Assembly: GCA_964543315.1 (NCBI GenBank)
Contig: CAZIXY010000001.1
Location: forward strand, 1 to 42,725
Reading direction: 5' to 3'
DNA length: 42,725 bases
From: an uncultured Desulfobacteraceae bacterium
GTDB taxonomy: Bacteria > Desulfobacterota > DSM-4660 > Desulfatiglandales > Desulfatiglandaceae
Part shown: positions 5,671 through 25,467 of the stretch, piece by piece
Layout of the letters: each line of letters starts with the position of its first letter
Numbering within the stretch: the stretch's first letter is position 1
The notes under the pieces: model-generated
Seen by the model: only the letters and a program-made list of their open reading frames with translations
Databases searched by the model: none
Told to the model about the DNA's origin: nothing
Made by a program: the position numbers and the translations under genes

Positions 5671-5775
5671 CCCCTACTCCAATCCTTATCAAAACATAAA
5701 AGCTAGACCTGCATAACTCATGACCATTTTAATCCGTAATAAGCATCCGCTTATAAACCAGGGTTAAATATTTTT

Positions 5776-9862: not shown

Positions 9863-10032
9863 ATCGTCTTAAAACATCCGCTCCTGAAAAACGGGAATCC
9901 CTGGTACAAAATAATTGATTTTATCGGAGGTTGTTTCCTGTCTTGGGGTTCAGGTTTCCATCTGTGGTACCCGGAACCTGCTTTGTCAAAAAAAATGACC
10001 TCCATTCTGTTAACTCCAATTCGGAATGCTCA

Positions 10033-11220
10033 CTATATGACCTTATTTTCCTTGAGACGAGCCAGGTCATCATCCGAGTACCCCAGTGCGCCGTAAATTT
10101 CCTTATTTTGTTCCCCGAAACGCGGCGGAAAAGAAAGCTTTCGGTCCAGTTGTTCCAGAAATGGGGTCATATTGGGCGGGGGTGGCAAGAGTATTTTTTT
10201 CCCGGTGACCGGATCCTGTGAAGACAACAGCCTTCTTTCGACCAAGGGATCGGCGATCACCTCCGGAATGGTCTTTATTTTGCTTATGGGAAGCGTAAGG
10301 GAGTTGAATAGGTCAATCAGCTCTTCGGACGTGTGGTTTTTGGTAATATCGCTTATCTCGCGGTTCAAATTCTGCACGTCCCCTATTCGGCCGGCGTTTT
10401 TGTCGTATTCCGGCTTGTCCAGATGCTTGAACATCTCCAGGGATACCATGGATTTCCACTGCCGGTCATTTCCCACGGCCATGTAGACAAATCCATTGCT
10501 CGTCTGATAGACGGAAACCGGACAGAAAAATTCGTGGGTGTTGCCCCTGCGAGTTATCGCCTTATTGAAAAGCGTGGATAGGGTTATGGGCACCGTCATC
10601 CATGATACGGAAGATTCAAACATGGACATGTTGATACAAGACCCCTCCCCTGTTGCCTCTCTCTTGAATAGGGCCTTCATCAGGAGTCCATAGGAATGTT
10701 CGCTTGTTCCCATATCCGGAAGTGGGATGCCGACCACCTGGGGGTCTCCGTCAGCCTCGCCGGTCAGATCCATCATGCCCGATCTCGCCTGAAGGATTGG
10801 ATCATATGCCGCCTCATTGCTGTCGGGACCGAAACCGGTAACGCCGAGCCATATGATATCCGGTTTCAAGGCCTTCATGGACTCGTAATCAACTCCCAGC
10901 TTTTTATAGTTCCTGGGAAGCTGGTTGGTCGCAAAGATATCCACATGGAGTTCTTCAATCAGAGAATGGAATATCTTCTGCCCTTCCTGGTCACCCAAAT
11001 TCAATGTGAGTGCCTCTTTGCCTGAATTTATGCACAGGTAATAGGCGTTCATCCTCTCCTCTCCAAGCACATTGTCACCTATTAGCCTGTTCGGATCCCC
11101 GTATACAGGATGTTCAAGTCGGATAACCCGCATGCCGTCTTGCGCCAGCCTGTAAGTCAAATAGGGCAGGACAGTCGCCTGTTCAAGAGATAATACGGTA
11201 ATGTTTTTGAAAAAATCCAT
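10033..11220 (-). CDS. Family III CoA-transferase (CaiB/BaiF/Frc family; BbsEF/IaaL-like)
   Basis: 395 aa. Typical N-terminus (ITVLSLEQATVLPYLTYRLAQDGMRVIRLEHP) and typical length. Confidence 0.9.
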   Translation of the reverse strand: MDFFKNITVLSLEQATVLPYLTYRLAQDGMRVIRLEHPVYGDPNRLIGDNVLGEERMNAYYLCINSGKEALTLNLGDQEGQKIFHSLIEELHVDIFATNQLPRNYKKLGVDYESMKALKPDIIWLGVTGFGPDSNEAAYDPILQARSGMMDLTGEADGDPQVVGIPLPDMGTSEHSYGLLMKALFKREATGEGSCINMSMFESSVSWMTVPITLSTLFNKAITRRGNTHEFFCPVSVYQTSNGFVYMAVGNDRQWKSMVSLEMFKHLDKPEYDKNAGRIGDVQNLNREISDITKNHTSEELIDLFNSLTLPISKIKTIPEVIADPLVERRLLSSQDPVTGKKILLPPPPNMTPFLEQLDRKLSFPPRFGEQNKEIYGALGYSDDDLARLKENKVI

Positions 11221-11337
11221 GATTTCCCCCTTTCGGGCCGGAGGCCAGGAATAATAATGGGTTGGTGTTTAATGAAGGGCAACTTCAAATAAGCTTTTCA
11301 AGCATTTGTGTACTGTATACAATATGCACTGTCAAGG
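11149..11337. repeat. Copy A of a duplicated segment: CoA-transferase 5' codons, 5'-UTR and promoter
   Basis: Aligns by eye with 18083-18269 in the same orientation, roughly 80% identity. The pair includes a perfectly identical 33-bp block (11305-11337 = 18237-18269). Confidence 0.85.
11307..11335 (-). promoter_or_regulatory. Putative sigma70 promoter of the catabolic operon with an embedded palindromic operator
   Basis: On the minus strand: perfect -35 TTGACA (11335-11330), a 17-nt spacer, and -10 TACACA (11312-11307). The 8-bp palindrome TGTATACA (11314-11321) lies in the spacer. The start codon is ~85 nt downstream. Confidence 0.5.
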
Positions 11338-11427
11338 AATTTTTCCCCGGAAAATTAACGGATGCCACCATTTTTGGATACAAAACAAGGTAGCTGGTCT
11401 TGGCTGGAAAAAACCGCCTTAATGCAG

Positions 11428-11841
11428 TCATTGACAGGGGCTTTGGTAGGGTCCTAATTTTTTAATCTCGCTGGTAAAGTCATTGATTACCCGGGCAAAT
11501 TTTAATCCTTCTGCCGCGGAGAGCCATTCAAGTCTTATCCTTCTGTTATCTATCCCCAACTGGGTGATCAAATTCTTTAAGAGCATTATCCTTCTTCGAG
11601 CCTTGTAATTACCAGCCTGGTAATGGCAGCTTCCCAAGTCTCAACCTCCAACAAAAACACCATCCGCCCCCAAATTAAATGCCTCAGTGATATGTAAGGG
11701 GTCAACGGCTCCCGAGCACATTACCCTGATTATCCTCAAGTTGGCAGGGTATCGGATGCGGCTTGTTCCCGCCAGATCTGCCGCCCTATAGACACACCAA
11801 TTGCAACAAAAACCCACAATTTTCGGTTCAAATGTATTCAC
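11428..11841 (-). CDS. mvhD: MvhD-type hydrogenase/heterodisulfide-reductase-associated [2Fe-2S] subunit, selenocysteine-containing (in-frame TGA at 11643-11641)
   Basis: ORFs 11641-11919 and 11428-11637 are in the same frame, separated only by TGA. The joined sequence reads ...[45 protein letters not shown]...[27 protein letters not shown]. This matches the MvhD consensus ...VGGCHxGDCHY with the first Cys replaced by TGA. The likely start is GTG 11841 (GAAGG RBS 7 nt upstream), giving [16 protein letters not shown] 11877 and the track's upstream start at 11919 (apparently non-ATG by my reading) are alternatives. Confidence 0.8.
11608..11624 (-). promoter_or_regulatory. Candidate bacterial SECIS hairpin for the mvhD UGA
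   Basis: The mRNA reads UGA-GACUUGGGAAGCUGCC-AUUACC-AGGCU-GGUAAU. This is a 6-bp stem (extendable by GCC/GGC) with a G-rich 5-nt loop. The stem starts 16 nt (17th base) after the UGA. Confidence 0.5.
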
Positions 11842-12090
11842 GGTTTTACCTTCTTTATATCTTGCACAAATTTGCATATTAGGGTAAGGGCAGGTGTGTG
11901 TCAATCTCAAATCTATCAATACGTTTCCAGGAAAAAGCTCTGTTCAGTTAGCTCTATCATTCCTGTGTTTGATGTGATAGCAAAAAAATCGTATCAGTTC
12001 ATAGGTTCAGAGTACTGATTTCACCGAAAGCCCGCATATTCTTCTGCGCGCAGGTCTGAACCTGGGAATACCTAAGACAAGGAGATGGAA

Positions 12091-13071
12091 ATGGCTAAGC
12101 CAAAGATCGCCTTTTATTCATGTGCTTCATGTGGAGGGTGTGAGGAAGCAGTCATTAACCTTGATGAAGATATACTGAACGTGGCGGATGCTGTGGATAT
12201 CATACAATGGCCTACGATCCTGGATTTTAAGAGGAAGGATCTTGAAGCCTTGGGAGATGGTGAGATAGTGGTGAGCTTCATAAATGGAGCAGTAAGGCTC
12301 GGTGAACAGGAGGAAATGGTAAATCTCTTAAGGCAAAAGTCTCAGCTCATAGTCGCCTTTGGTTCTTGTGCTCATTTGGGAGGGATACCGGGTCTGGGTA
12401 ACCTCTACACGAGGGATGCGATTTTACAAAGGATTTATAAGGAAGTCCCGACTGTTGAAAATCCAGAGGGAATTATTCCACAGGAGAGGACAACCATTGA
12501 TACTGGCGAGCTCACTCTGCCGGAGTTTTATGATACGGTAAAGACCTTGGGTCAGGTCATCCCGGTGGATTACTACCTTCCCGGGTGTCCACCGCCTTCT
12601 CACTTGATAATGAGTGCGTTAAGTGCATTTCTTAAGGGTGAATTACCGGAAAAGGGGGCAGTGCTTGCTCCTGGTAAACCTTTATGTGATACCTGCCCCA
12701 GGGCGGAGGAAAGACGGGGGGGAGTATCAATACAGGAAATAAAAAGACCACACGAAATTAAACTCAGCCCCTGGAAGTGTTTTCTTGAGCAGGGGATAAT
12801 CTGCCTTGGTTCGGTTACCCGCTCAGGGTGCGGAGAAAGGTGCATTAAAGCTAATATGCCGTGCAGGGGGTGTATGGGTCCTGCCGAAGGGACTGTAGAT
12901 CAAGGGATAAAAGCCCTTTCAGTTATTGCATCCATATTGGGACTTGAAGGAGAAGAAGGGATGACAGAGGAAGAGGTTAAAAAATTACTCGATGGCATTG
13001 AAGACCCGGCAGGGACATTTTACAGATTCAGCATGCCCACTTCTCTCCTTATAAGAAGGAAAATGAAATAG
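12091..13071 (+). CDS. mvhG: [NiFe] hydrogenase small subunit, Mvh/group-3c type (MvhG-like)
   Basis: The ORF starts at 12085, but ATG 12091 has better spacing to AAGGAG. The N-terminus KIAFYSCASCGGCEE, plus GSCAHLGG and LPGCPPP, provide the proximal-cluster cysteines. CDTCP, the CFLEQGIIC segment and CGERCIKANMPCRGC supply further Fe-S ligands. Confidence 0.88.
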   Translation: MAKPKIAFYSCASCGGCEEAVINLDEDILNVADAVDIIQWPTILDFKRKDLEALGDGEIVVSFINGAVRLGEQEEMVNLLRQKSQLIVAFGSCAHLGGIPGLGNLYTRDAILQRIYKEVPTVENPEGIIPQERTTIDTGELTLPEFYDTVKTLGQVIPVDYYLPGCPPPSHLIMSALSAFLKGELPEKGAVLAPGKPLCDTCPRAEERRGGVSIQEIKRPHEIKLSPWKCFLEQGIICLGSVTRSGCGERCIKANMPCRGCMGPAEGTVDQGIKALSVIASILGLEGEEGMTEEEVKKLLDGIEDPAGTFYRFSMPTSLLIRRKMK

Positions 13072-13080
13072 GAGGACAGA

Positions 13081-14454
13081 GTGAGAAAGATAACCATAGA
13101 CCCGGTAACAAGAATTGAAGGGCATGGGAAGATAGAGATATTACTTGATAAGGAAGGGGAGGTTGAAAGAGCCTATTTTCAAACCCCGGGGCTTCGCGGG
13201 TTCGAGAAATTTTGTGAGGGAAGACCGGCCGAAGAGATGCCTAGAATAACGCAAAGGATCTGTGGCGGAAGTTCAACAGCTCACCACATGGCGTCGACCA
13301 AGGCCCTTGATGACCTTTTCAAGGTTGAGCCGACCCCGGTGGCAAAGAATATACGAGAATTGATGTACAATGCCTTCATTGCAGAACACCATATTTTGCA
13401 TTTCTTTTTCCTTGGTGGACCCGACTTTTTTGTCGGTCCGCGAGAAACCGCCAAAGAAAGGAATATCATGGGGGTTATTGCCAAGGCCGGGATGGAAGTG
13501 AGAGATAAAATCATAGAGGCAAGGAAAAGGCTGAGAGGAGTTATGGAAGCAATAGGGGGGAAGGTGATTCACCCTGTTTGCGGGCTGCCCGGAGGAATAT
13601 CAAAACCTGTAACCGAGGAGGAAAGAAAAGACTTTATAAGGGCGGCTGAATACTTAGTAGAATTTTCCGTATTTGTCGCGTTTGACATTTGGGACAATAT
13701 GGTGCTTAAAAAAAAGGACTATCTCGATTTTATCACAGGAGATGTTTATAAGCAAAGGACCTACTACATGGGTCTGGTGGATGAGAATAATAAGGTAAAT
13801 TATTACGATGGTCTCATAAGGGTGGTTGACCCAAATGGTAAAGAATTTGCCAGATTTGAGGCTCAGGAATACCCTGATCATATCAGGGAACATGTTGAGC
13901 CGTGGACCTATGAGAAATTTTCCTACCTCAAGAACGTAGGCTGGAAGGGATTTGTTAGCGGTGAAGAGAGCGGCGTTTTCAAAGTAGGACCACTGGCCCG
14001 GCTGAATGCAGCCGACGGAATGGCGACTCCACTGGCTCAAGAATACTATGAAAAAATGTATGCAGCATTGGGTGAGAAACCGGCACACAATACCCTTGCT
14101 TTCCACTGGGCCAGGCTCATTGAGCTGGTTTACACCTCTGAGAGGATGCTGGACCTTGTCGGCGACCCGGATCTTACTTCCCCTGATGTGATAAATATAC
14201 CGGCCGAAATTCCAACACAAGGGGTGGGAGTGGTAGAAGCACCGGAAGGGACCCTTTTCCATCAATACGAAACTGATGAAAGGGGGATTGTCACAGGGGC
14301 CAATTTGATTGAACCCGTGCAAAACAATTCAGCTTCTATTTGTATGTCTATCGAGAAGGCGGCTAAATCGCTTATACATAAAGGCAAGGTCACGGATAGT
14401 ATTCTCAATATGATTGAGATGGCAATCAGGGCCTATGATCCCTGTAATGCCTGA
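13081..14454 (+). CDS. mvhA: [NiFe] hydrogenase large-subunit homologue, Mvh/group-3c type, with atypical active-site motifs
   Basis: GTG start 5 nt after GGAGGA. The TRIEGHGKIE (L0) motif and overall MvhA-like sequence are present. However, RICGGSSTAHH replaces RxCGxCxxxH, EAPEGTLFH replaces EAPRGxLxH, and the ORF ends DPCNA-TGA where DPCxxCxxH is expected. Confidence 0.85.
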   Translation: MRKITIDPVTRIEGHGKIEILLDKEGEVERAYFQTPGLRGFEKFCEGRPAEEMPRITQRICGGSSTAHHMASTKALDDLFKVEPTPVAKNIRELMYNAFIAEHHILHFFFLGGPDFFVGPRETAKERNIMGVIAKAGMEVRDKIIEARKRLRGVMEAIGGKVIHPVCGLPGGISKPVTEEERKDFIRAAEYLVEFSVFVAFDIWDNMVLKKKDYLDFITGDVYKQRTYYMGLVDENNKVNYYDGLIRVVDPNGKEFARFEAQEYPDHIREHVEPWTYEKFSYLKNVGWKGFVSGEESGVFKVGPLARLNAADGMATPLAQEYYEKMYAALGEKPAHNTLAFHWARLIELVYTSERMLDLVGDPDLTSPDVINIPAEIPTQGVGVVEAPEGTLFHQYETDERGIVTGANLIEPVQNNSASICMSIEKAAKSLIHKGKVTDSILNMIEMAIRAYDPCNA

Positions 14455-14488
14455 GCTACCCCCTCACCTCCAGGAAAAATATCAGACT

Positions 14489-15493
14489 CTACCCTCCAAG
14501 TAATGCCTTACACTCCTCGATTAATGGGGGCAAAACCTTTCGATAATCTGCGATTACTCCAAGATCAGAGACCTTAAACATACCTGCATCAGAATCCTTA
14601 TTTATTGCCACTATAAGCTTTGACTCCGAGCAGCCGGCAATATGCTGCGATGCGCCACGTATCCCGACTGCAATATAAAGGTCAGGCTTTACAGTCTTGC
14701 CTGAATCTCCAATTACCATACTTGTTGTGGGCACCCAGCCTTCATCATAAGGCACCGTCGTTGTACCTACAGCACCCCCTAATATCTTGGCAAAATCTTG
14801 AAGAAGCTGAAAGCCCTCAGCATCGCCAATTCCTCCTCCGCCGGCAATTATTACCTTAGCGTCCTCGATCTTTATTCCTTCCACCTCTTCTTTTGTTGTG
14901 CTCACCAATTTGGTTCTTATTACTGAATCATCTATTGTCACCTTGATATTTTCGACTTCGCCCTTTCTTGAGCTATCGGGTTCAAGTGGTGTCATGGCCC
15001 TTGGTTTTATAGTTGCCAACTGCGGCCGGGAATCTTTGGAAACCATCTCTGCAATAGCATTCCCGCCGTAAACCGACCGGGTCTGAACCAAAGTTTTGCT
15101 ATCCGGATCCATATCAACATTAATGCAGTTCATGAAAGGGAAGCACCCTAATCTAAAAGCTACCCTGCCAGCTACATCGCGTCCCATAGTTGTGTGCCCT
15201 AATAAAACAACAGACGGCCCTATTTGCTGACAAGCCTGGGTAATTGCAGCGGTATAGCTATCGGGGTTGTACTCGGACAGCAAGGGGTCATCTGCCAGAT
15301 AGACATTATCCGCCCCATAGAGGATAGCTTCCTCACCGCTTTCCCGAATATCGCTTCCTATGATGAGTGCGCTTAAGTTTCCGTCAAGTCCTTCGGCCAG
15401 CATTTTCCCGACACCCAGCAATTCCTTAGTAATTGCTGTAATCTTCCCCTCTTCCTGTTCTCCGCAGATCAGCACTGCACTATTTTGAGCCAT
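14489..15493 (-). CDS. etfA: Electron transfer flavoprotein alpha subunit
   Basis: 334 aa. C-terminal FAD-binding signature PDLYIAVGIRGASQHIAG. It sits immediately downstream of etfB. Confidence 0.93.
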   Translation of the reverse strand: MAQNSAVLICGEQEEGKITAITKELLGVGKMLAEGLDGNLSALIIGSDIRESGEEAILYGADNVYLADDPLLSEYNPDSYTAAITQACQQIGPSVVLLGHTTMGRDVAGRVAFRLGCFPFMNCINVDMDPDSKTLVQTRSVYGGNAIAEMVSKDSRPQLATIKPRAMTPLEPDSSRKGEVENIKVTIDDSVIRTKLVSTTKEEVEGIKIEDAKVIIAGGGGIGDAEGFQLLQDFAKILGGAVGTTTVPYDEGWVPTTSMVIGDSGKTVKPDLYIAVGIRGASQHIAGCSESKLIVAINKDSDAGMFKVSDLGVIADYRKVLPPLIEECKALLGG

Positions 15494-15508
15494 TCGATTC
15501 CTCCTTTT

Positions 15509-16306
15509 TTATATCACTCCGGCCGCTCTCAGCTTCGCTGCCAGATTTCCAGCGACCTCCTCCGGAGCTTCGCCACCGATGATTTCACATTTTCTTCCTC
15601 GCTCAGGGATAGAGAGTTTCAGCAGGTTAGATCCTTCGGCACTTGCTCCGATGAGGGAGACATCAGCATTAATATCCTGATTTGACCAAACCGGAATTTC
15701 CTTACGCACTGCACTTACGATACCCATTCCAGTGGGTAGGCGAGGCAAGCCAATCTCATTGCTCACAGTCAGTACTGCCGGCAGGGAGACCTCAAATACC
15801 TGATGGCCGTCTGGAATTGTTCTTTCAACCTTTAAAAGATTATCATCTAATAGTTCAATATCTTTGGCTAAGCTAATGTGAGGCAGATTTAGTCTCTCGG
15901 CTAAGACGGCGCCGACTGTGCCCATACTCCAATCAGCTGCTTCCCTCCCGCACAAGACCAGGTCAAAGGCATCAATTTTCTGTATTGCCTGGGCCAGGAT
16001 ATAAGCTGTAGCAAGGCTGTCCGAACCCGCAAACGCATCATCATACAGGACAATTCCCTCATCAGCCCCCATGGCCAAAGCACGCCTGACCACCTCTTTA
16101 GACTCATCAGTTCCTACGGTTATTGCTGTTATCTTGCCTCCATGTTTTTCCTTGACTCGCAGCGCAGCCTCTACTGCTTGAGCGTCATAAGGATTCATCA
16201 CTAATGGTATTCCCTCAGGTGGAATCACCTGGTTATCCTTAAGCCTAAATTTTTCCGTCGGCATCTCGGGGTCCAGGACTTGCTTAACGCATACCACAAT
16301 ATTCAT
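15509..16306 (-). CDS. etfB: Electron transfer flavoprotein beta subunit
   Basis: 265 aa. It has the N-terminus MNIVVCVKQVLDP characteristic of EtfB/FixA. Confidence 0.93.
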   Translation of the reverse strand: MNIVVCVKQVLDPEMPTEKFRLKDNQVIPPEGIPLVMNPYDAQAVEAALRVKEKHGGKITAITVGTDESKEVVRRALAMGADEGIVLYDDAFAGSDSLATAYILAQAIQKIDAFDLVLCGREAADWSMGTVGAVLAERLNLPHISLAKDIELLDDNLLKVERTIPDGHQVFEVSLPAVLTVSNEIGLPRLPTGMGIVSAVRKEIPVWSNQDINADVSLIGASAEGSNLLKLSIPERGRKCEIIGGEAPEEVAGNLAAKLRAAGVI

Positions 16307-16347
16307 TTCTCTTTCCTCCTTACCATTTTCCGGTATTCCAATATTCT

Positions 16348-16366
16348 CCCCGCTGCTTCAGCGGGG
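16348..16366 (-). other. Intercistronic hairpin between the acyl-CoA dehydrogenase gene and etfB
   Basis: CCCCGCTG-CTT-CAGCGGGG forms a perfect 8-bp GC-rich stem. It lies within the 136-nt gap between 16443 and 16306. Confidence 0.4.
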
Positions 16367-16442
16367 ATGAGCAAAGCGAACTATCTTGCTTCAGACCTCT
16401 ATGTGGTTGAGAAGTTGATTGGTTAATTTGACGATCTCTGTA

Positions 16443-17597
16443 CTAAGAGAAAGCAGGTATCCCCAAAAGCTGCTGCCCAATAGTCAACTGGTGTATTTGT
16501 GCTGACCCGCCCAGTATCGTAGCTACTATAGCATCTTGATAGTGGTGCCCCACGGGATAGTCATCAACAGTGCCAAAGGCACCATGAATCTTAATTGCCT
16601 GAGATGATACCCAGAGCGCCGTCTCTGTACTAAAATACTTGGAGCAGGACATCTCTTTGATATGCCTGATCCCCCGGGTCTTCATATCCGCTACACGATA
16701 GGCAAGCCATCTGGCTGCCTCAATCTTCATTGCCATATCAGCGATGACCCCCTGTACCAACTGATGGCCACCTATGGGCTTTCCAAACTGGACTCGCTCC
16801 TTGGCATACTTTACACACGAGTCAAGACAACTCTGGGCTACACCAACACAACCGGCGGCCAAGAAAAGACGGGCAGTATCAATACCTCGCAGGGCATCCC
16901 TCAAAGCTCGCCCGGTCTCCCCAACCTTGTTCTCCAGGGGTACCTTTACATCGCTGAATCTTAAGTTGCCCTCACTACCACCTCGCCAGCCTAACTTACC
17001 TTTTAGAGGCACGCTTGAGAAACCCGGCATACCCCTCTCAATTATAAATGTGGCAAGCCCTTTAAGACCTTTGGCTTTATCTGTCTGGCAAATGACCAAA
17101 AGGACGTCACCTATTTCGCCATTAGTAATAAAGATCTTATTACCATTGATGAGCCAGTGGTCGCCTTCTAATACGGCAGTGGTCTCAATCCTGGACGAAT
17201 CACTACCGGCATTAGGTTCAACTACAGCACCGACCAGAATCGAATCACCACGACACACCGAGGGCAGGTATTTCTGCTTCTGCTCCTCACTACCCGCATC
17301 CAAAAGATTAGTTCCCGGTTGGATGCAGCCGCTTGTCGCCGCCTGGGTTATAGCGAGGCTGGCCCAGCAAAGCTGCTCCCAAATAATAGCCGAGGTAAGA
17401 TAATCAAGCCCCAATCCTCCGTATTCCTGGGGCAAATGTGGAGCTAAGAGTCCCTGTGATGCCAGCTTTTTTATAATCCCAGGGTCAAATTTGTCCTCAC
17501 GGATATTCTCCTTGAGCGTTGGCAAAATCTCCCGTTCGGCAAACTTCCGTGCCATATCCTGAAACATCTTCTGCTCTTCATTTAGCTGAAAATCCAT
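16443..17597 (-). CDS. Acyl-CoA dehydrogenase
   Basis: 384 aa. ACAD architecture and typical N-terminus (MDFQLNEEQKMFQDMARKFAEREI), with a C-terminal helical domain. Confidence 0.92.
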   Translation of the reverse strand: MDFQLNEEQKMFQDMARKFAEREILPTLKENIREDKFDPGIIKKLASQGLLAPHLPQEYGGLGLDYLTSAIIWEQLCWASLAITQAATSGCIQPGTNLLDAGSEEQKQKYLPSVCRGDSILVGAVVEPNAGSDSSRIETTAVLEGDHWLINGNKIFITNGEIGDVLLVICQTDKAKGLKGLATFIIERGMPGFSSVPLKGKLGWRGGSEGNLRFSDVKVPLENKVGETGRALRDALRGIDTARLFLAAGCVGVAQSCLDSCVKYAKERVQFGKPIGGHQLVQGVIADMAMKIEAARWLAYRVADMKTRGIRHIKEMSCSKYFSTETALWVSSQAIKIHGAFGTVDDYPVGHHYQDAIVATILGGSAQIHQLTIGQQLLGIPAFS

Positions 17598-17617
17598 TCT
17601 TTATGCCTCCAAGTATT

Positions 17618-18013
17618 TTAGTCCTTCTGGACAAGCTCAACAAGGATGCCATGAGTCCCCTTGGGGTGAAGAAAGGCGCTTAATCCCTCGGCACCGGGCA
17701 TCGGCTTTCCCAGGGCATCAATCCCTTTATCCTTAAGCGAACCAATTTCCGCGTTGATATCATCCACCTCATAGCAGACATGTTGTATACCCTCACCGCG
17801 CTTTTCCAGGAATCTGGATATCGGTCCATCTTTGCCAACAGGCTCTAAGAGCTCAACAGTAGCATTCTCTAACTCCACCATGCTTACCCTAACCGTTCCT
17901 CCTCCTCCAATTATTGGTTCAGACGATTCAAGCCCAAAGACCGAACGATAAAACTCCCTGGCTTCCTCAAGGTCTTTTACTGCCATACCCAGATGACTAA
18001 TCGCTTTTAGCAT
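17618..18013 (-). CDS. Methylmalonyl-CoA epimerase-like VOC (glyoxalase-fold) protein
   Basis: 131 aa. Sequence features HLGMAV...ELLEP...FLEKRGEGIQHVCYEV...ILVELVQ are typical of methylmalonyl-CoA epimerases. Confidence 0.85.
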   Translation of the reverse strand: MLKAISHLGMAVKDLEEAREFYRSVFGLESSEPIIGGGGTVRVSMVELENATVELLEPVGKDGPISRFLEKRGEGIQHVCYEVDDINAEIGSLKDKGIDALGKPMPGAEGLSAFLHPKGTHGILVELVQKD

Positions 18014-18037
18014 TTATCGCCTCCTAATGATAAGATT

Positions 18038-18151
18038 TCAATTATGCGGAGAATATATATGAAAATAAGGTTTTTGTGTCAATCCGTAAGCCAAGTATGG
18101 TAACAAAGTTGCCTGCTCAAGAGACAATACGGTGATTTTTTTGGGATCCAT
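18038..18151 (-). pseudogene. Relic 5' fragment of a family III CoA-transferase gene (first ~26 codons, then unrelated tail and stop)
   Basis: From ATG 18151 the sequence reads MDPKKITVLSLEQATLLPYLAYGLTQ. Compare MDFFKNITVLSLEQATVLPYLTYRLAQ of the full gene at 11220. Homology ends after ~26 codons and the frame stops at 18038. Confidence 0.8.
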
Positions 18152-18269
18152 GATTTTCCCCCTTTCAGGCCCGGGGCCATGAATGATAGTGGGTTGGTGT
18201 TGGATGAATGGCAACTTCAAATGAGCAGTTCAAGTCTTTGTGTACTGTATACAATATGCACTGTCAAGG
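18083..18269. repeat. Copy B of the duplicated CoA-transferase 5' codons, 5'-UTR and promoter segment
   Basis: See copy A (11149-11337). Same orientation. It overlaps the last codons of mltG. Confidence 0.85.
18239..18267 (-). promoter_or_regulatory. Putative sigma70 promoter (duplicate) driving the epimerase-ACAD-etfBA operon, with the same palindromic operator
   Basis: On the minus strand: -35 TTGACA (18267-18262), a 17-nt spacer, and -10 TACACA (18244-18239). TGTATACA lies at 18246-18253. The sequence is identical to 11307-11335. Confidence 0.5.
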
Positions 18270-19298
18270 GTTTTTTCGGCGGGTTCCGCGCCTTTTTTTC
18301 TGATAGATTTCTACCGCCTTGTTGTGTTCGGAAAGGGTCTCTGAAAAATAATGACTGCCGTCATTTTTTGAAACAAAATACAGGTATTTACTGTCCGCCG
18401 GATAAAGAATCGCCTTGATTGCTTCCTTGCCGGGATTTGATATCGGCCCGGGCGGCAGCCCTCGAATGATATATGTATTGTAGGGAGTGCTTTGATTGAG
18501 ATGCTCTCGTGTAAGATCTCCGTCAAATTTCTTCAGACCGTATATCACCGTGGGATCACTTTCGAGGCGCATGTTTTTTTCCAGTCGATTTAAGAAAACA
18601 CTCGCAATAAGCGGCCTTTCTTTTGCACGGCCGGTCTCTTTTTCCACGATAGAGGCAAGGATAACCACTTCCTGCATCGTCATGTCCAATTCCTCGGCCC
18701 TTTTCCGGAATGGAGCAGTGACCTGCCGGAATCGATTGACCATCGTATCAATTACTGAAATGGCGGGCAATCCTCGGCCGAAATGATAGGTGTCGGGGTA
18801 CAGGTAGCCTTCCAGCCCTGTTCCGGACACGCCATATCGCTTTGAAATTTCAGGATTTTCTGTAAGTGATAGAAACTCCTTCTTTTTTATAAGACCCCTT
18901 TTTTCCAACAATTCTCCTATCTGCATCCTGGTAAATCCTTCGGGGATGGTTACCGGATGCAGTAAGACAGCACCCTTGCTTAAGACATTGAGGATCTTGA
19001 GTGGCGGCATACCGGAATTCAGCACATATTCCCCGGCTTTGATGTTTGTGCTGTGACCCATGAGCCTGGCCCAAAAAAGGAAAAGGCCTTTGTTCGTGAT
19101 AATTTCCCTTCTGTTGAGTTCGCCGGCCACCTCCTTAAGAGTTGCGCCGTCCCGGACGATGAATAACTGATCGTCTCCACCTCCTTTGGCAGGGCTCATG
19201 AGATAATACCCGTATGCGAAAAGCACAAAGACAACCATTAGAAAACAAAAAGCGATTGCAAAAAGTATGGATCTCCTGTGAGACAACGGATGCTGCAT
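18264..19298 (-). CDS. mltG: Endolytic murein transglycosylase MltG (YceG-like)
   Basis: 344 aa. N-terminal TM anchor and YceG-family sequence (FTIPEG-type block TIPEGFTRMQIGELL, ASIVEKET, LESDPTVIYG). Confidence 0.88.
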   Translation of the reverse strand: MQHPLSHRRSILFAIAFCFLMVVFVLFAYGYYLMSPAKGGGDDQLFIVRDGATLKEVAGELNRREIITNKGLFLFWARLMGHSTNIKAGEYVLNSGMPPLKILNVLSKGAVLLHPVTIPEGFTRMQIGELLEKRGLIKKKEFLSLTENPEISKRYGVSGTGLEGYLYPDTYHFGRGLPAISVIDTMVNRFRQVTAPFRKRAEELDMTMQEVVILASIVEKETGRAKERPLIASVFLNRLEKNMRLESDPTVIYGLKKFDGDLTREHLNQSTPYNTYIIRGLPPGPISNPGKEAIKAILYPADSKYLYFVSKNDGSHYFSETLSEHNKAVEIYQKKRRGTRRKNP

Positions 19299-19466: not shown

Positions 19467-20594
19467 ATGAGGTGCCGCCCACTGTCTTTTGCGATCACGA
19501 TGGCTCTGTTCATAATCTTAATGGCCTTAAGACCGGCTGCTGCAAACAACATGCCCGTTGGAGAGATTACTGAAACAAAAGGACCCGTCCAGATTACGAA
19601 AGATGACGGTAGGGAGATACGAGCCGAAAAAGGAACTCCCCTTTTTCCCGGAGATCAGATCGCGACGGGAAAAGGAGCCTTTGTTTGGTTTTCATTTCAA
19701 CACGGGGATCAATTCAGGCTGGATGAAGAGGCCCAAGCATCCATCGACGAGTTGTCCGGCAGTGAATTGGAAGACCATATGCCCGTGCTTCAGCTTGCAC
19801 TGGGGTATTTGTGGTCTAAAATCCAGAAACTCAGGGGCGAACTGCACAGGACGGTCGTCCATACACCCACTGCGGTTCTCGGTGTCCGGGGAACGGAATT
19901 TGACACCGTCGTATCCATGGACGCGACATCCGCCATCACGGTTGACGATGGCACAGTCGAGGTAGAGACGGAAGATGAAAAGACGCTGGTCGGCAAAGGG
20001 AAGATGACGGAGGTTGAGATTGACAAAAGGCCGACAACCCCCACGCCCGCAATCCCCAAGGAAAAGAGGGACTGGAAGGAATGGAGAAAAAAGAAGGTAA
20101 AGAGACTTCTTAAAAACCTCCCCCAAAAGGTACCGAAGTATCGAGGGAGATTCGAAACGCGTGTGGATCGATTTTCACAGTTTATGGCCCGAATCAGGAA
20201 CACTTCCGCCCAAATTGATGCAACAATCGCACAAATACGACAGGCCGGAATACAAAGGGATCGCCAAAAGGCATTGCAATCGTTCGGGCGACTGAAGGCC
20301 CAGACCCAGGGATTTAAAAAAATGGTTGGGAGATTTAGAAAAGCACTCAACCGTGTTCGTGTGATGGGCAGGTTTTCTAAACGACTTGAAAAATTTGCTT
20401 CCAAGATTAAAGAGCGCTACAGCGCGCAGGAATTTAGCGTCATCGAATCCAATCTTATGGCAGTCAGCGAGAAGAGGGCCCAGTTGAAAACCCATACCAG
20501 AGAGACGGTTTTCACCATCAAAAAGACTTTCAGAAAGCTGAGAAAATTCAGAGAAGAGGCCCGAGCACGACGGGCCCGTAGGACGCGTCAGTAA
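19467..20594 (+). CDS. Secreted FecR-domain protein with a long Lys/Arg-rich helical C-terminal region
   Basis: The ORF starts at 19278. The likely start is ATG 19467, 7 nt after AAGGAG. It has a signal peptide (MRCRPLSFAITMALFIILMALRPAAA) and a FecR-like beta-rich domain (GDQIATGKGAFVWFSF...TAVLGVRGTEF). The last ~200 aa are very basic and predicted helical. Confidence 0.7.
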   Translation: MRCRPLSFAITMALFIILMALRPAAANNMPVGEITETKGPVQITKDDGREIRAEKGTPLFPGDQIATGKGAFVWFSFQHGDQFRLDEEAQASIDELSGSELEDHMPVLQLALGYLWSKIQKLRGELHRTVVHTPTAVLGVRGTEFDTVVSMDATSAITVDDGTVEVETEDEKTLVGKGKMTEVEIDKRPTTPTPAIPKEKRDWKEWRKKKVKRLLKNLPQKVPKYRGRFETRVDRFSQFMARIRNTSAQIDATIAQIRQAGIQRDRQKALQSFGRLKAQTQGFKKMVGRFRKALNRVRVMGRFSKRLEKFASKIKERYSAQEFSVIESNLMAVSEKRAQLKTHTRETVFTIKKTFRKLRKFREEARARRARRTRQ

Positions 20595-20656
20595 GCGGAT
20601 AGTGGAACTTTTTATTGATTCCTCTATCGGGGTATTCCACTACTAAATGTTTATGG

Positions 20657-20682
20657 ACGGCGAAGCTTGCCCGCCGTTTTTT
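20657..20682 (+). terminator. Rho-independent terminator of the FecR-domain gene
   Basis: CGGCG-aagcttgcc-CGCCG followed by T7 (20676-20682). Confidence 0.55.
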
Positions 20683-20918
20683 TGGTGGGCTTGTCCGCCG
20701 TCTGGCAGGCGGGGTATGGGGCTCTTCGAAAGACCGTATCTTTCGGATCGATTCTCCTCTGCCCTGTGCCGCGGCCCGAGTCGCTGGCTGCGTTGCAACA
20801 GCCCCATGATATCCACTACCTTCCTTTCCAGCGGCCCCGAGGGAGGGCCGCTTGCAACTCAGGAGCAGATGCAGCCTGGAGAAGAGTGTCATGCCGAGCC
20901 TTTTTCCTGGACTAAACA
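20661..20918. repeat. GC-rich structured repeat, copy 1
   Basis: Aligns by eye with 24342-24586 in direct orientation, roughly 75-80% identity over ~215 bp. Conserved hairpins: CCGCC-N8-GGCGG (20694-20711), a CGAAAGA...TCTTTCG stem, and AGCGGCCC-N7-GGGCCGCT (20829-20851). Confidence 0.8.
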
Positions 20919-20962
20919 ATCAATATAACGCCGGCCACAAAGGCTTTGCAAGGAGCTTTTAC

Positions 20963-22168
20963 TTACAAGAGGCTGGCATTCAGAAAGTCGGGGTTCAGTT
21001 TTTTCAAGATACGTACCATATTGTTCAACTGCACCTGTACCGTCCCCTCGTACATCTCCACAATGCGGTTATCCCGGTATCTGCGTTCCACGTCCTGTTC
21101 CAGGAAATACCCATATCCTCCGAACACGGTTATGGCGTCATCAATGACTCCCTTGGCGGTTTCCGGAACATAGTGTTTGACCATGGATGTGAGCAGGGGG
21201 ACGGTGGCGGCCATTTTGCGGGGCGTATGGTCACAAAACCAGGCCGATTGATAAGTGAGCCATTTCATTGATTGAACCTGGCTCCACATCCTTGCCAATT
21301 TATGCCCTATACCCTGGAAATCAATGATCGGTCGATTGAATTGCTTCCTGCCTTTTGCATGAATCAGCGCCTTTAGAAACGCCCCTTCTGCAATACCCAG
21401 TGACTGTGCCGCTATCTCGATGCGGCTTTCATCGAGAAAATCCAGGATATTCATAAGACCTCGTCCCTTTTCACCTAATAAATTCGCGCTGGGCACCTCC
21501 AGGTTTTTGAAGACCAGTTCTCCGCTGGAAGACATCCTCAGGCCCATTTTGTTGGGGATCTCGTTGATCTCCAGCTCCCCGCCCATCCACGTCGACGGAT
21601 CACGGTCAACAAGCAGGGTGCTCATGCCCTGACCCCGTCTCGCCTCCTGATCGGTCTGGCAGAGGACGATGAAAAAGTCGGCGTAGCCGGCATTTGTCGT
21701 AAAGATCTTGGTCCCGTCAATAATATACCGGTCATCCTTTTCCACCGCGGTCGTCGCCATGGCCGTAATGTCGCTTCCGTGGTCCGGCTCTGTGAAAGAT
21801 ACGGCCGAAACAGAGTCCCCCTGTATCATGGGGCTCAGGAATTTTCGATGCTGCTCCGGCGTGCCGAAAAACTTCACGATCTTTGCCGGCAGGTATGCCA
21901 GATGAATCGCCATGCCGATACCGGAGTCGGCCTTGCAAAATTCCTCCACCGCAAGCACGTTTTCCATGACGCCGAGGCCTTCACCCCCGATTTCCTTGGG
22001 ATAGTTCAGTCCTATGAATCCCAGTTCCCCGGCCTGCTTATAGAGATCTTTCGGAAATTTGTGATTCAACTCATATTCAACAGCCCTTTCAGAAGAAAAC
22101 TCTCCCTCTGCAAATTCCGCTGCAGCCCTCTTGATGTCTCTCTGTTCCCTTGTAAGTGAAAAGTCCAT
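20963..22168 (-). CDS. Acyl-CoA dehydrogenase
   Basis: 401 aa. ACAD family (MDFSLTREQRDIKRAAAEFAEGEF... and a C-terminal YEGTVQVQ block). Confidence 0.9.
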   Translation of the reverse strand: MDFSLTREQRDIKRAAAEFAEGEFSSERAVEYELNHKFPKDLYKQAGELGFIGLNYPKEIGGEGLGVMENVLAVEEFCKADSGIGMAIHLAYLPAKIVKFFGTPEQHRKFLSPMIQGDSVSAVSFTEPDHGSDITAMATTAVEKDDRYIIDGTKIFTTNAGYADFFIVLCQTDQEARRGQGMSTLLVDRDPSTWMGGELEINEIPNKMGLRMSSSGELVFKNLEVPSANLLGEKGRGLMNILDFLDESRIEIAAQSLGIAEGAFLKALIHAKGRKQFNRPIIDFQGIGHKLARMWSQVQSMKWLTYQSAWFCDHTPRKMAATVPLLTSMVKHYVPETAKGVIDDAITVFGGYGYFLEQDVERRYRDNRIVEMYEGTVQVQLNNMVRILKKLNPDFLNASLL

Positions 22169-22228
22169 AGCGTCTTCTCCACATTAAATCACTTATTTTT
22201 TGTTCATATTAAAATCTTAAATGGGCAC

Positions 22229-23380
22229 TTACTTGTATCTGGCAATCGCCTTACCACTCCTTATCATCTCTTTTCCGATAATCATCCTCTGGATTTGATT
22301 GGTGCCCTCAAAAATCTGAGTCAGTTTGGCATCCCTGAACATCCTTTCCAGGGGATAGTCCTTAGTATAGCCGTATCCACCGAGTATCTGGACCATGTCC
22401 GTAGTGATCTTCATGGACGCGTCACTGCAGAAATATTTTGACATGGAGGCCAGGTCGGTGTTCGGTTTTCCCGCATCGTGCATGAGGGCGGCCCTTTCCA
22501 TCAGTCCCCGTCCCGCCTCTATTTGTGTGCTGGCATCCGCTAACATGAACTGTATGGCCTGGTGCTCGACAAGGCTTTTTCCAAAAGAGGTGCGGTTGAG
22601 GGCGTATTCAAGAGCGTATTGCACGGCCCCTTCCGCAATGCCCAGTGCAAGGGCCGCCACAGCCGGGCGTGACATGTCAAAATCCGCCATGGCAATGGCA
22701 AAACCGTCTCCCGGCTTCCCCAGCATGTTTTCCTTGGATACAACAACATCTTCAAGGATCACCTCGGATGTATTGCTGCCGCGAAACCCGCATTTATCCT
22801 CCACCTTTCCAATGCTGATACCGTCCTGGTTCCTGTCTACGACAAAGAAAGAAAGCTCCTTTTCCCCTGATCTTGCAAGCACCGAATAGATGCCGGCTAC
22901 TGCCCCGTTTGTGGCAAAGACCTTTCTTCCGTTCAAGACATAGTTTTCACTGGAGGGCTTTGCAGTGCACGTAATGGCCTGCACGTCCGATCCGGCCCCG
23001 GGCTCGCTGACCAGGTAGGCGATCAGTTCACGCCCCTCTGAAATCCTTGGAAAACACCTTTCTTTTTGTCGCTGATTGGCGGCTGAGATAATGGGAAAGC
23101 TGCCTACGGCCTGAATGACCAAAAGTAGCGCTGAAGAAGCACAGGCCTTGGAAATTTCCTCAATGGAAAGGCAGAGAGTATGACACGGATTGTGCGGCCA
23201 GCCGCCATAGGTCTCGGGGAGCATGATCTGAAGGAGGCCCATGTCCCAGAATAAGGAGACCGTGTTCCAGTTAAACTCGCCTTTTCTGTCAATTTCTCCG
23301 GCAACCGGTGCTATTTTGTCTTTGACAAGCCTTCCCAGGTTGTCTAACAGGATTTTTTGGTCTTCCGTAGTCTCGATCAT
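22229..23380 (-). CDS. Acyl-CoA dehydrogenase
   Basis: 383 aa. ACAD family (C-terminal IFEGTNQIQRMIIG). Confidence 0.92.
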   Translation of the reverse strand: MIETTEDQKILLDNLGRLVKDKIAPVAGEIDRKGEFNWNTVSLFWDMGLLQIMLPETYGGWPHNPCHTLCLSIEEISKACASSALLLVIQAVGSFPIISAANQRQKERCFPRISEGRELIAYLVSEPGAGSDVQAITCTAKPSSENYVLNGRKVFATNGAVAGIYSVLARSGEKELSFFVVDRNQDGISIGKVEDKCGFRGSNTSEVILEDVVVSKENMLGKPGDGFAIAMADFDMSRPAVAALALGIAEGAVQYALEYALNRTSFGKSLVEHQAIQFMLADASTQIEAGRGLMERAALMHDAGKPNTDLASMSKYFCSDASMKITTDMVQILGGYGYTKDYPLERMFRDAKLTQIFEGTNQIQRMIIGKEMIRSGKAIARYK

Positions 23381-23422
23381 ATCTGCCTCACTAAGTCCCT
23401 TAAAATCTGATATCCCGGCTGG

Positions 23423-24217
23423 TTACCAGCCGGCTCCGGCCTGATCCTTTAACTCCAGGCTCAATTGATGGGCCAGTTTTCTGGCCCATTTGCCGATTTT
23501 TTCATAGTTGTCGGTGGTGATCCGGAAGGACGGCCCCGCGACACCCAGACAGGCGGATATAATTCCCTCATGATCGTAAACAGGTGCCGCGATCCTGCAC
23601 ACACCCGCCCTCATTTCCTCGTGATCCACTGCATATCCTTTTTTCCTCACCTCATGTAATTCCTTTTCCAAGTCCCCAAAGTTTATGATGGTATGCTCCG
23701 TAATCTTGGGCAACCCCATCCTTTCCATGACATGCCTGAGTTTTTCGCCGGTCATATGGGCGAGGTAGACCTTTCCCGGCGCCGTGGCATGGAAATACGG
23801 ATAGGCGCTACCGATCCTTGAGAAAAGCCTCACAGCCTCCGGGCCTTCCATCTCGTCTATCAGGATGAGCTGATCCTTAACCCTCGCAGACAGCTCTGCT
23901 GTCTCCCCGCTCAGTTCAACCATCCGTTTCAAGTATCCCCTGGCCTGGGATCGAAATCCCATCCGGTTCAAGAAGATATTGCCAAGGTAGAGAAACTTGA
24001 AACCGAGCCTGTAGGTTTTCTGTTCCCTGTCAAATATGACATAGCCGTTCTCCCTCAGGACGGAAAGTATCCGCCAGAGAGAAGGCACGGGGATGACCAG
24101 CCTCTCGCTTATTGACTTGAGGGTGAGCTCGGATTCTTCCTCGGCCATGAGTTCAAGGACCCTCAATCCTCTGGCCAGGGCCGGGGCCATTTGATTTTTT
24201 CTTTTATTCTTTTTCAT
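23423..24217 (-). CDS. IclR-family transcriptional regulator
   Basis: 264 aa. N-terminal wHTH (ALARGLRVLELMAEEESELTLKSISERLVIPVPSLWRILSVLRENGYV) plus an IclR effector domain. ATG 24190 is an alternative start. Confidence 0.9.
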   Translation of the reverse strand: MKKNKRKNQMAPALARGLRVLELMAEEESELTLKSISERLVIPVPSLWRILSVLRENGYVIFDREQKTYRLGFKFLYLGNIFLNRMGFRSQARGYLKRMVELSGETAELSARVKDQLILIDEMEGPEAVRLFSRIGSAYPYFHATAPGKVYLAHMTGEKLRHVMERMGLPKITEHTIINFGDLEKELHEVRKKGYAVDHEEMRAGVCRIAAPVYDHEGIISACLGVAGPSFRITTDNYEKIGKWARKLAHQLSLELKDQAGAGW

Positions 24218-24243
24218 ATATGAAATATTATTTTCACATATGA
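24214..24243. promoter_or_regulatory. Inverted repeat overlapping the IclR start region (candidate autoregulatory operator)
   Basis: TCATATATGAAA (24214-24225) and TTTCACATATGA (24232-24243) form 12-bp arms matching at 11 of 12 positions, with a 6-bp AT spacer. Confidence 0.4.
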
Positions 24244-24341
24244 TAATGTGCTTCCGTCACATTGTCAACCCTCTGCCCTCAAATTAAATCTGCCGCCAGG
24301 TTTGAAAAGCCTCATTAACATTTCATAAAACTTCAGCCTAT

Positions 24342-24586
24342 GCCGCTTTTGAAAACACCCCCCATGACTTGCCCGCCGTCCGGCAGGCGGGGAATGGGAC
24401 TCTTCGAAGGGATGCATCTTTCGAATCAAACCTCCTCCGCACTGTTACGCGGCCCGAGTCGCGGCCTGCATTGCAACGACCTCATGTTGTCGACTACCTT
24501 CCCTTCCAGCGGCCCGCAGGGAGGGCCGCTTGCAGCGTAGGAGTAGATGCGTCCTGGAGAAGAGTGCCATGCCGAGCCCTAAACAA
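24342..24586. repeat. GC-rich structured repeat, copy 2
   Basis: See copy 1. Conserved hairpin AGCGGCCC-N7-GGGCCGCT at 24508-24530. It carries a 5' module GCCGCTTTTGAAAACACCCCCCATGAC that recurs at 24819. Confidence 0.8.
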
Positions 24587-24818
24587 CCGCGGGCCTATAA
24601 AACTTAAATCTCTTCGGATACATGGGGGTTGGGCCATGGCAATCTCTTTTCAAATTGCGCATCCCGACTTCTGCCGAAAGAGTCGAACGCCCCCATTCCC
24701 GCAAACAGACGGCCCGGAGCAAATATTGAAGCCTAATACCACGACAAATACTCCCTTCAGGGGCTGTCCAGGGATGCATTTTCAGGCCTCACTAACAATC
24801 CATAATAGGTCATCAAAC

Positions 24819-24913
24819 GCGGCTTTTGAAAACAGACCCCCATGCCCCTATTTTACTGCATAATGGAGGCAAAGCGCGAAGCTTGTCCGCCGTCCGGCAG
24901 GCGGGGCACAAGC
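24819..24913. repeat. GC-rich structured repeat, partial copy 3 (5' part only)
   Basis: GCGGCTTTTGAAAACAGACCCCCATGCC is followed by GCTTGTCCGCCGTCCGGCAGGCGGGGCACAAGC. The latter is an extended hairpin equivalent to the first stem of copies 1 and 2. Confidence 0.6.
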
Positions 24914-25062
24914 CTCAATGATAACCTCTTTTTGCCATTGACAATACAACCCCTTTTTCCTTACCTTTTAACCTGACGTGGACATCCAGGGCATGGTATA
25001 CGAGACTCTTTTTTCAGGAACCTCGGCCAATGCCGCAGGCCCGCGAACCAGGAGAAGGAGCG

Positions 25063-25467
25063 ATGATGCAAAATCACGACATCGTGGAAGCCATAGGAAA
25101 GGACTCCTTTGCATGGCTCCAAAAAAAGTTCGACAAGACAACGACACTGAAAGATCTTCCGGATGGCATCCTTTATCGTATTGCCGCAGTTGACATGTCA
25201 GTAAGGGATTATGCAAGCGACAAAAACACGGTCATTGCCATTGCGTTGATCACCTTTGCCTACAATCTCGCAGGCATGGTTCAGCAGCCGCGATTCGGAC
25301 CCAAGGATATCCTTTTATTAAAGATGCTGGCCAAGAGAGAAAAAACAAGAAGGGAGGGACAGACCGGCTTCGATCATGCACAGCTGGAGCACCCCCTTTT
25401 TGAACTTATTACCGGAGAAATCGGTGGCCGGATCAGGAGCATGCGCACCATCAACAGTCCAATATGA
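25063..25467 (+). CDS. Hypothetical protein (no recognisable motif)
   Basis: The ORF spans 25030-25467. ATG 25063 or 25066 follows GGAGAAGGAG. The composition looks coding, but I recognise no family. Confidence 0.5.
   Translation: MMQNHDIVEAIGKDSFAWLQKKFDKTTTLKDLPDGILYRIAAVDMSVRDYASDKNTVIAIALITFAYNLAGMVQQPRFGPKDILLLKMLAKREKTRREGQTGFDHAQLEHPLFELITGEIGGRIRSMRTINSPI

Follow-up and report, generated by a model that had tools for sequence, protein, structure and literature searches.

A modular intergenic hairpin repeat family in an uncultured Desulfobacteraceae lineage

Introduction

[quoted passage not shown] Small RNA (sRNA) genes may also form tandem multicopy arrays, as exemplified by NsiR1 in Anabaena. 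[quoted passage not shown] REP doublets forming hairpins (REPINs) show compensatory changes in their hairpins and occur in tandem as ordered arrays in which two REP groups alternate, with an orientation that depends on the replichore (PMC3116915). In this study, we analyzed a 42,725 nt stretch of DNA (contig CAZIXY010000001.1 of assembly GCA_964543315.1, hereafter the window) from an uncultured Desulfobacteraceae bacterium, in which two direct copies of a hairpin-forming repeat, designated module A, lie on either side of an IclR regulator gene and two acyl-CoA dehydrogenase (ACAD) genes.

The copies had been noticed in an original prediction made from the letters of the window. We put at about 60% the probability that A is a module of a lineage-specific, non-coding, modular interspersed family that resembles REPINs, bacterial interspersed mosaic elements (BIMEs), and MITEs, lies between the genes of an uncultured Desulfobacteraceae lineage, and has spread as a non-autonomous element.

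Results

Copies of Module A Are Dispersed over Unrelated Loci

A repeat search of the window aligned positions 20690-20900 with 24368-24578 over 211 nt, without gaps and at 83% identity (blastn E=1e-59). These two copies (copies 1 and 2) share one orientation, as had been predicted, and flank three genes of the minus strand (20963-24217), which encode the IclR regulator (23423-24217) and the two ACADs (22229-23380 and 20963-22168). Profile hidden Markov models built from all copies detected no further family members in the window, and outside the two repeat regions no other segment was common to the window and unrelated loci.

GTDB species genomes were scanned with the 5' hairpin motif of the repeat, which yielded four loci in two uncultured Desulfobacteraceae metagenome-assembled genomes (MAGs); two of these loci were full, ungapped 211 nt copies in unrelated contexts. 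A metagenome scan added little. Using a spurious ORF of the right-hand repeat region as bait, 14 "hypothetical proteins" were retrieved from protein databases, all from JGI/ENA metagenomes and none with a Pfam domain. The best-conserved part of these matches corresponded to positions ~24636-24850 of the window, between copy 2 and a truncated third copy, and not to the 211 nt repeat; this second unit was designated module B. A profile protein search with translations of B returned four additional matches, none from a named organism. The DNA of the protein matches was retrieved, and the modules were mapped on it with nhmmer. About 19 public "hypothetical protein" clusters (P0001-P0019) proved to be A, B, and a 24 nt hairpin unit, H, translated in assorted frames. 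Tandem H units translate as ACPP(C/Y)VWR repeats.

Since further copies were found in other genomes and metagenomes, the repeat is not a simple local duplication. Among the sequences found, the family was confined to MAGs of Desulfobacteraceae and to metagenomes from vents or sediments. In four metagenomes, the contig depth over A and B was 10-25 times that of the flanks, with most contigs being <90% identical; metagenome contigs ended at repeats, and the joints seen represented other module orders. At locus L030, four consecutive intergenic regions in a 7.7 kb stretch contained members (2347-2809, 3975-4088, 5255-5768, and 7100-7538), all on one strand and separated by queG, map, and a major facilitator superfamily (MFS) transporter gene, a density far above that of the window (two sites in 42.7 kb). 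Copies were dispersed in unrelated contexts and were present as solo copies, as truncated copies, and as head-to-tail A-B arrays on one strand.

Module A Is Maintained as a Plus-Strand Hairpin

A consensus fold was derived from 18 distinct A copies. It consisted of a single long imperfect hairpin with five helices (P1-P5) and 41 pairs, in which 95.8% of the 737 pair cells were standard pairs, as opposed to 35-51% when the 3' partners were slid by 1-3 columns. Seven pairs had changed on both sides compared with 2.6±1.2 in shuffled alignments, and none of 500 shuffles reached seven; this double-change count had the lowest false-positive rate among the measures in the tool's own trials. Column entropy was 0.31 for paired and 0.74 for unpaired positions, and GCGGCCC (alignment columns 66-72) paired with GGGCCGC (columns 171-177) in the family. 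G.U cells outnumbered A.C cells by 67:16, and by our own count there were 14 versus 3 pairs where the variant was present in at least two copies. Because mutation of a double-stranded palindrome should yield both kinds equally, this excess implies that the plus strand folds, either as RNA or as single-stranded DNA (ssDNA). In an enumeration of conserved helices, the plus strand supported all four 7 bp helices, whereas the minus strand lost P5 and shortened P1. The hairpin of A is maintained by selection and is read on the plus strand.

Helix enumeration was uninformative for module B, which is too conserved, and the terminal pairing of B never varies, so that covariation is silent there. Single-sequence folding z-scores (-1.3 to -2.3, both strands) were not informative alone. 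An alifold structure based on the two window copies was discarded, as it rested on too few sequences and was superseded by the 18-copy fold.

The larger alignment also altered the set of stems that had been proposed from the window. A CUCC...GGAG pairing was conserved in the 18 copies and formed part of the one long hairpin, and a CCGCC-loop-GGCGG stem was likewise conserved, with a variable loop, and corresponded to the separable H unit. A CGAAAGA/TCTTTCG stem was present but shrank to 4 bp and competed with a covarying GCATCT/AGATGC pairing. The AGCGGCCC/GGGCCGCT stem was limited to the window copies; most copies carry AGCAGACC, which introduces two mismatches. Two of the four stems had therefore been misassigned, and module B had been overlooked.

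A search of the whole window against Rfam 15 at gathering thresholds gave no matches, in line with the original prediction, which had made no match to RNase P, SRP, tmRNA, 6S, group II intron domains, or a riboswitch. At E<=10, only chance-level matches were obtained on 20500-25100, and A and B had none. No tRNA or tmRNA was detected by ARAGORN.

The Family Is Built from Modules H, A, and B

The H unit (24 nt, CTTGYCCGYCG-loop-GGNGGG) retains its stem and varies in its loop, and zero to three tandem units are inserted between GGCGAAG and GTATGGG. All 19 H units in non-redundant loci were on the plus strand of the element. Module A (~190 nt) has 15 bp of terminal pairing, and module B (~225 nt) has 24-25 nt inverted ends (GGGCCATGGCRATCTCTTTTCAAA / TTTTGAAAAGAGACCCCCATGCCCC) that resemble the ends of A (GGCATGGGGCTCTTCGAAA...). 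The ends of the B core in the window are GGGCCATGGCAATCTCTTTTCAAA (24631-24654) and TTTTGAAAACAGACCCCCATGCCCC (24824-24848), and the 3' inverted end in the B fragment next to copy 2 is TTTTGAAAACACCCCCCATG (24347-24366). Per-column identity was 85% for B and 72% for A, and a 27 nt block of B (24679-24705 in the window) was invariant across 13 copies, third codon positions included. A and B alternated head to tail on a single strand, in the order B-A-B-A-A at L022, B-A-B-A at L033, and shortA-B-A-B' at L015. Short-A is a subfamily, seen in three genomes, that retains the ends of A and has a different 45 nt core.

The features in the window are listed in Table 1. The left site is arranged as GGCGAAG-H-H-A plus tail (20659-20929); its module A is a solo copy between convergent genes, and the tail motif CCAAYCAAYATAAC was found again 3' of A at other loci. 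The right site is arranged as B'(24302-24367)-H-A(24368-24578)-leader-B(24631-24854)-linker-H-A'(24882-24916). A partial third copy had been proposed at 24819-24913; its 24 nt H unit and ~11 degenerate nucleotides stand, whereas the extra similarity is between stretches of module B, which makes the proposed copy a composite. Here, 24786-24840 resembles 24309-24363 at 76% and is the 3' end of B.

Table 1: Repeat modules and associated features in the window.
Feature	Position	Strand	Remarks
GGCGAAG	20659..20665	+	Conserved 5' boundary motif before H or A in nearly all copies; from alignments
H unit, degenerate (CTTGCCCGCCG-TTTTTTT-GGTGGG)	20666..20689	+	24 nt GC hairpin, T-rich loop
H unit CTTGTCCGCCGTCTGGCAGGCGGG	20690..20713	+	Second in tandem pair
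Module A copy 1	20713..20900	+	~188 nt long imperfect hairpin, helices P1-P5; nhmmer E=6e-57
3' tail of copy 1	20901..20929	+	Contains CAATCAATATAAC at 20917-20929
Module B 3' fragment	24302..24367	+	Abuts H and A of copy 2; nhmmer E=6e-12
H unit of copy 2	24368..24391	+	
Module A copy 2	24391..24578	+	nhmmer E=6.5e-58
Leader	24579..24630	+	Separates A from B; less conserved
Module B core	24631..24854	+	
Linker	24855..24881	+	-10-like TGCATAAT at 24857-24864; GCGAAG at 24876-24881
H unit and truncated A	24882..24916	+	H at 24882-24905, followed by 11 degenerate nt from the 5' end of A
164-aa ORF	24369..24863	+	Publicly called "hypothetical protein"; spurious read-through of A and B

Copies 1 and 2 Are Independent Family Members

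Pairwise identities among A copies were star-like, ranging from 69% to 88% and mostly from 72% to 85%. The nearest relatives of copy 1 were L030a (81.2%), L021 (81.1%), and copy 2 (80.7%). Copies from other genomes are as near to copy 1 as copy 2 is, indicating that the window copies did not arise by local duplication; they are independent members of the family and not the ends of a cassette. The significance implied in describing the IclR-ACAD-ACAD module as framed by direct repeats is supported neither by these identities nor by the occurrence of the family in many unrelated intergenic regions.

Conservation and turnover were compared at sites shared between loci. At the orthologous site phasin - B-A - queG (L030 versus L035/36), identity was 85-88% for A and B and 78-83% for third codon positions in the flanking genes, and the non-repeat spacer was barely alignable. 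At this site, H was present in L035 and missing from L030. Elsewhere, L030 contained a block of ~440 nt (linker-H-H-A-other module-H-H) where L021 had ~46 nt, between flanks that were 82-87% identical. Whole blocks have been gained or lost between related species.

Orientation and Transcription Signals

The contigs with more than one site carried all of them on a single strand (two sites in the window, four in L030, two in L022, and two in L011), for which the chance by our own arithmetic is ~0.016. According to the gene tables of the retrieved loci, the element was antisense to its co-directional neighbor genes in 7/7 cases. Neither read-through transcription nor an IS608-type lagging-strand model accounts for this orientation bias. 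At ~12 of 16 sites, the element had its 3' end directed toward that of a gene on the opposite strand.

Promoter and terminator scans gave no more matches than shuffled sequence, and the matches were not aligned with the modules. A -10-like hexamer (CATAAT, CATACT, or TATACT) was located exactly 7 nt 5' of GGCGAAG in ~9 copies; about half of these hexamers were without the key A at position 2, and neither a conserved -35 box nor a terminator was found at A or B copies. On its 3' side, A was followed only by GAGCC and 2-5 T, which is not an intrinsic terminator. A strong sigma-70-like site, TTGACA-17-TATCAT (11/12 matches), was present on the minus strand at 24268-24240, just upstream of the IclR start at 24217. 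As the repeat array does not include this site, IclR-ACAD-ACAD seems to be served by a promoter of its own.

Other Features of the Window and the Retrieved Loci

The window is ordinary chromosome, with genes for, among others, a TRAP transporter, methylmalonyl-CoA mutase, electron transfer flavoprotein, hydrogenase, and hydantoinases. A duplication spanning 11149-18269 had been presented as a parallel case of a module framed by direct repeats; however, the sequences concerned (11140-11350 and 18072-18282) are unrelated to the A/B family. They are 86% identical over 128 nt and ~84% identical over ~210 nt, duplicate the beginning of a gene on the minus strand (CAT at ~11218-11220, CoA-transferase) together with its upstream region, and contain an identical palindrome-bearing stretch, TTTGTGTACTGTATACAATATGCACTGTCAAGG, which looks like a common operator or promoter.

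Other recurrent intergenic modules were observed next to the arrays of several loci, namely, a hairpin (AAAGAATCCCCACCCAAAGGSGGGGCTTTATTCCCC), TATTTCGCACCCCAYWGGGGTGTTCC, and GGGCCATGGCTTTGAAATCTTTTCTTCGG. They were located at ~9920-9965 and ~10450-10490 in L021, at ~950-990 in L033, at ~6690-6720 and ~7050-7080 in L008, and upstream of the element in L006 and L015. The window has none of these extra modules, and its overlap with the loci in this respect is limited to the tail of copy 1. Several repeat families form a mosaic in the intergenic DNA of the lineage.

Discussion

If the family is a non-autonomous element, it would have been mobilized in trans by an enzyme encoded elsewhere, and this putative enzyme may recognize either folded ssDNA hairpins (an HUH/Y1, RAYT-like enzyme that leaves no target duplications) or the common inverted ends. 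Taken together, the lack of a target duplication, the precise insertion site of H, and the folding of one strand fit an HUH/Y1 (RAYT-like) enzyme acting on ssDNA better than a DDE enzyme acting on inverted ends. Arrays may subsequently have been enlarged by tandem duplication, and the settled hairpins could act as folded plus-strand nucleic acid, as RNA if transcribed and otherwise as ssDNA.

Several results weigh against such a mobile origin. No transposase (RAYT or otherwise) or integrase was detected in the window, and no transposase was detected in ~250 kb of retrieved loci; plasmid and phage records (blastn) and viral contigs (three scans) gave no match to the family. The copies are 72-88% identical in a star-like pattern, so that recent mobility is not apparent. 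No clean target duplication was seen at the occupied/empty junctions of L030 and L021, which, as a single pair of diverged species, constitute weak evidence. The long invariant internal blocks of B (27 nt in 13 copies), combined with the conservation of A and B at the orthologous site above that of third codon positions, argue for function and not for selfish decay. In addition, given the antisense placement in 7/7 cases, RNA produced by simple read-through would be of the wrong strand.

Part of this evidence is shared by the main rival explanation, in which A, and perhaps B, are multicopy, independently transcribed, structured sRNA genes, single or in tandem, with a putative promoter in the linker upstream of GGCGAAG. 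We regard this explanation as possible, although it is not the one that we favor. It would account for the plus-strand-specific pairing (G.U:A.C = 67:16) and the covariation, for the constraint at the nucleotide level that extends to third codon positions in the 27 nt C-rich block of B, and for the conservation at the orthologous site; the -10-like hexamer 7 nt before GGCGAAG in ~9 copies is consistent with it, and since the element is antisense to its co-directional neighbors, a plus-strand RNA would require a promoter of its own. That promoter, however, has no canonical -35 box, and about half of the hexamers do not have A at position 2. Moreover, A is not followed by an intrinsic terminator, the promoter and terminator scans did not exceed shuffled sequence, truncated and mosaic copies with presence/absence polymorphism are typical of repeats, and no Rfam family was matched. 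An extended form of the idea is somewhat less probable. Here, A and B would be two undescribed structured non-coding RNAs with tens of copies per genome, arranged in alternating arrays with their own promoters and antisense to their neighbors, and the invariant C-rich single-stranded block of B, AGAGUCGAACGCCCCCAUUCCCGCAAA, would act as a site for binding or as a seed, for example in a protein sponge or in a guide or scaffold RNA for an enzyme encoded elsewhere.

It is very unlikely that copies 1 and 2 are the edges of a mobile or recombining cassette, or of a local duplication, that carries IclR-ACAD-ACAD. The same orientation of the copies on both sides of the three genes suggests such an arrangement, as do the single genes separated by same-strand elements at L030, but copy 1 is no closer to copy 2 than to copies from other genomes, and a joined or deleted form of the module was not seen in four metagenomes; a cassette or local duplication was rejected on these two grounds. 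Between elements lie housekeeping genes whose synteny is conserved (queG, map, and the MFS transporter gene), the same MFS neighborhood was also found without the element, and the strong promoter-like site of the IclR operon (24268-24240) is outside the element. The integron variant of this explanation, with A as an attC site or as part of a CALIN, was rejected in view of the same syntenic genes, the lack of an integrase in the window, and the length of A (~190 nt), which exceeds that of attC sites (~57-141 nt); R-box motifs were checked by eye only. Least probable of all is that the repeats encode small proteins, such as the product of the 164-aa ORF or of the "MAISFQ...RPPCP" frame in B. All three forward frames are indeed open in copy 1, as had been stated (ORFs 20615-20809, 20647-20928, and 20667-20915), ORFs are open in many copies, 19 "hypothetical protein" clusters are on record, and at the start of A in copies without H a GGAGG-N8-ATG sequence (GGAGGCGAAGGTATGGGG), for example L015:10050-10070 and L033:1277-1297, mimics a ribosome-binding site and start codon. 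This ATG, however, is within helix P1, is present in only 12/18 copies, and is followed by no codon signal. Copies 1 and 2 differ at 36 positions, which split 9/15/12 by codon phase, column entropy has no 3-periodicity (coding tests were negative for A and B), and the synonymous:nonsynonymous ratio of the MAISFQ frame is 0.47, even with an ascertainment bias for that frame, compared with 0.28 and 0.38 for the other two. The frame called varies between copies, one copy is frame-shifted, invariant blocks take in third codon positions, and 19 translated copies contained no Pfam domain. A protein-coding gene was therefore rejected for want of codon periodicity, synonymous excess, and a single conserved frame. 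With its conserved covarying hairpin and no codon periodicity, the repeat fits a structured RNA or a REP/MITE-like element rather than a protein, as the original prediction had held.

These results remove a false lead, in that IclR-ACAD-ACAD is not a repeat-framed mobile cassette, and they identify ~19 public "hypothetical protein" clusters as translated repeats. Assemblies break at copies of the family, which matters for the binning of this lineage. Beyond the proteobacterial models that have been studied in detail, the family also provides a clean example of hairpin repeats with a modular make-up, in which the pairing of one strand has been kept through ~20% divergence, and a useful comparison for the question of whether repeats of this type are retained as selfish DNA or as RNA or ssDNA structures that are useful to the host.

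We finally compared the family with the systems described above. Like the RAYT-associated REPINs of Pseudomonas and the BIMEs of enterobacteria, it is extragenic and multicopy, with a hairpin that has conserved arms, a variable middle, and compensatory changes; it likewise includes singlets, remnants, and ordered arrays of two alternating types, with a regionally consistent orientation and no target duplication (PMC3116915; PMC3733652). The two-module alternating array is comparable to the alternating GI-GIII REP arrays of Pseudomonas fluorescens (PMC3116915). In contrast to REPINs (~70-110 nt) and REPs (20-40 nt), A is ~190 nt long, the copies are far more diverged (72-88%) than those of REPINs, module B is non-palindromic with long invariant internal blocks, and no RAYT gene was found in the DNA examined. 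GTAG or CGTC is not terminal as in REPs: H runs from CTTG to GGG and A from GGCGAAG to GAGCC, CGTC is confined to the junction of stem and loop in H, and GTAG is found only internally, in the 3' arm of A. This GTAG, the REP/RAYT cleavage motif, is part of AGGAGTAGATGC in most copies (20861-20872 and 24539-24550 in the window), copy 1 having GCAG.

The 24-25 nt inverted ends of B, the similar ends of A, and the common ends and different core of short-A are MITE-like, and the modular make-up is similar to that of BOX A/B/C. Unlike MITEs, the family showed no target-site duplication at the single occupied/empty pair examined, a parent insertion sequence or DDE transposase was not found in the window, the retrieved loci, or the plasmid, phage, and viral collections, and the G.U pairing is strand-asymmetric, which would not be anticipated if a transposase bound the inverted ends as double strands. 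Arrays of the NsiR1 type share with this family a structured unit repeated head to tail on one strand and, in some copies, a -10-like box at a fixed upstream distance; the family differs from them in having no terminator, many truncated or mosaic copies, and many scattered loci instead of one. As neither a terminal GTAG/CGTC nor a target duplication was observed and no transposase was identified, the family works like REP/MITE elements and is not filed as a member of either. With no Rfam match and no paper found on such repeats in Desulfobacteraceae, it constitutes a new family within a known kind of element.

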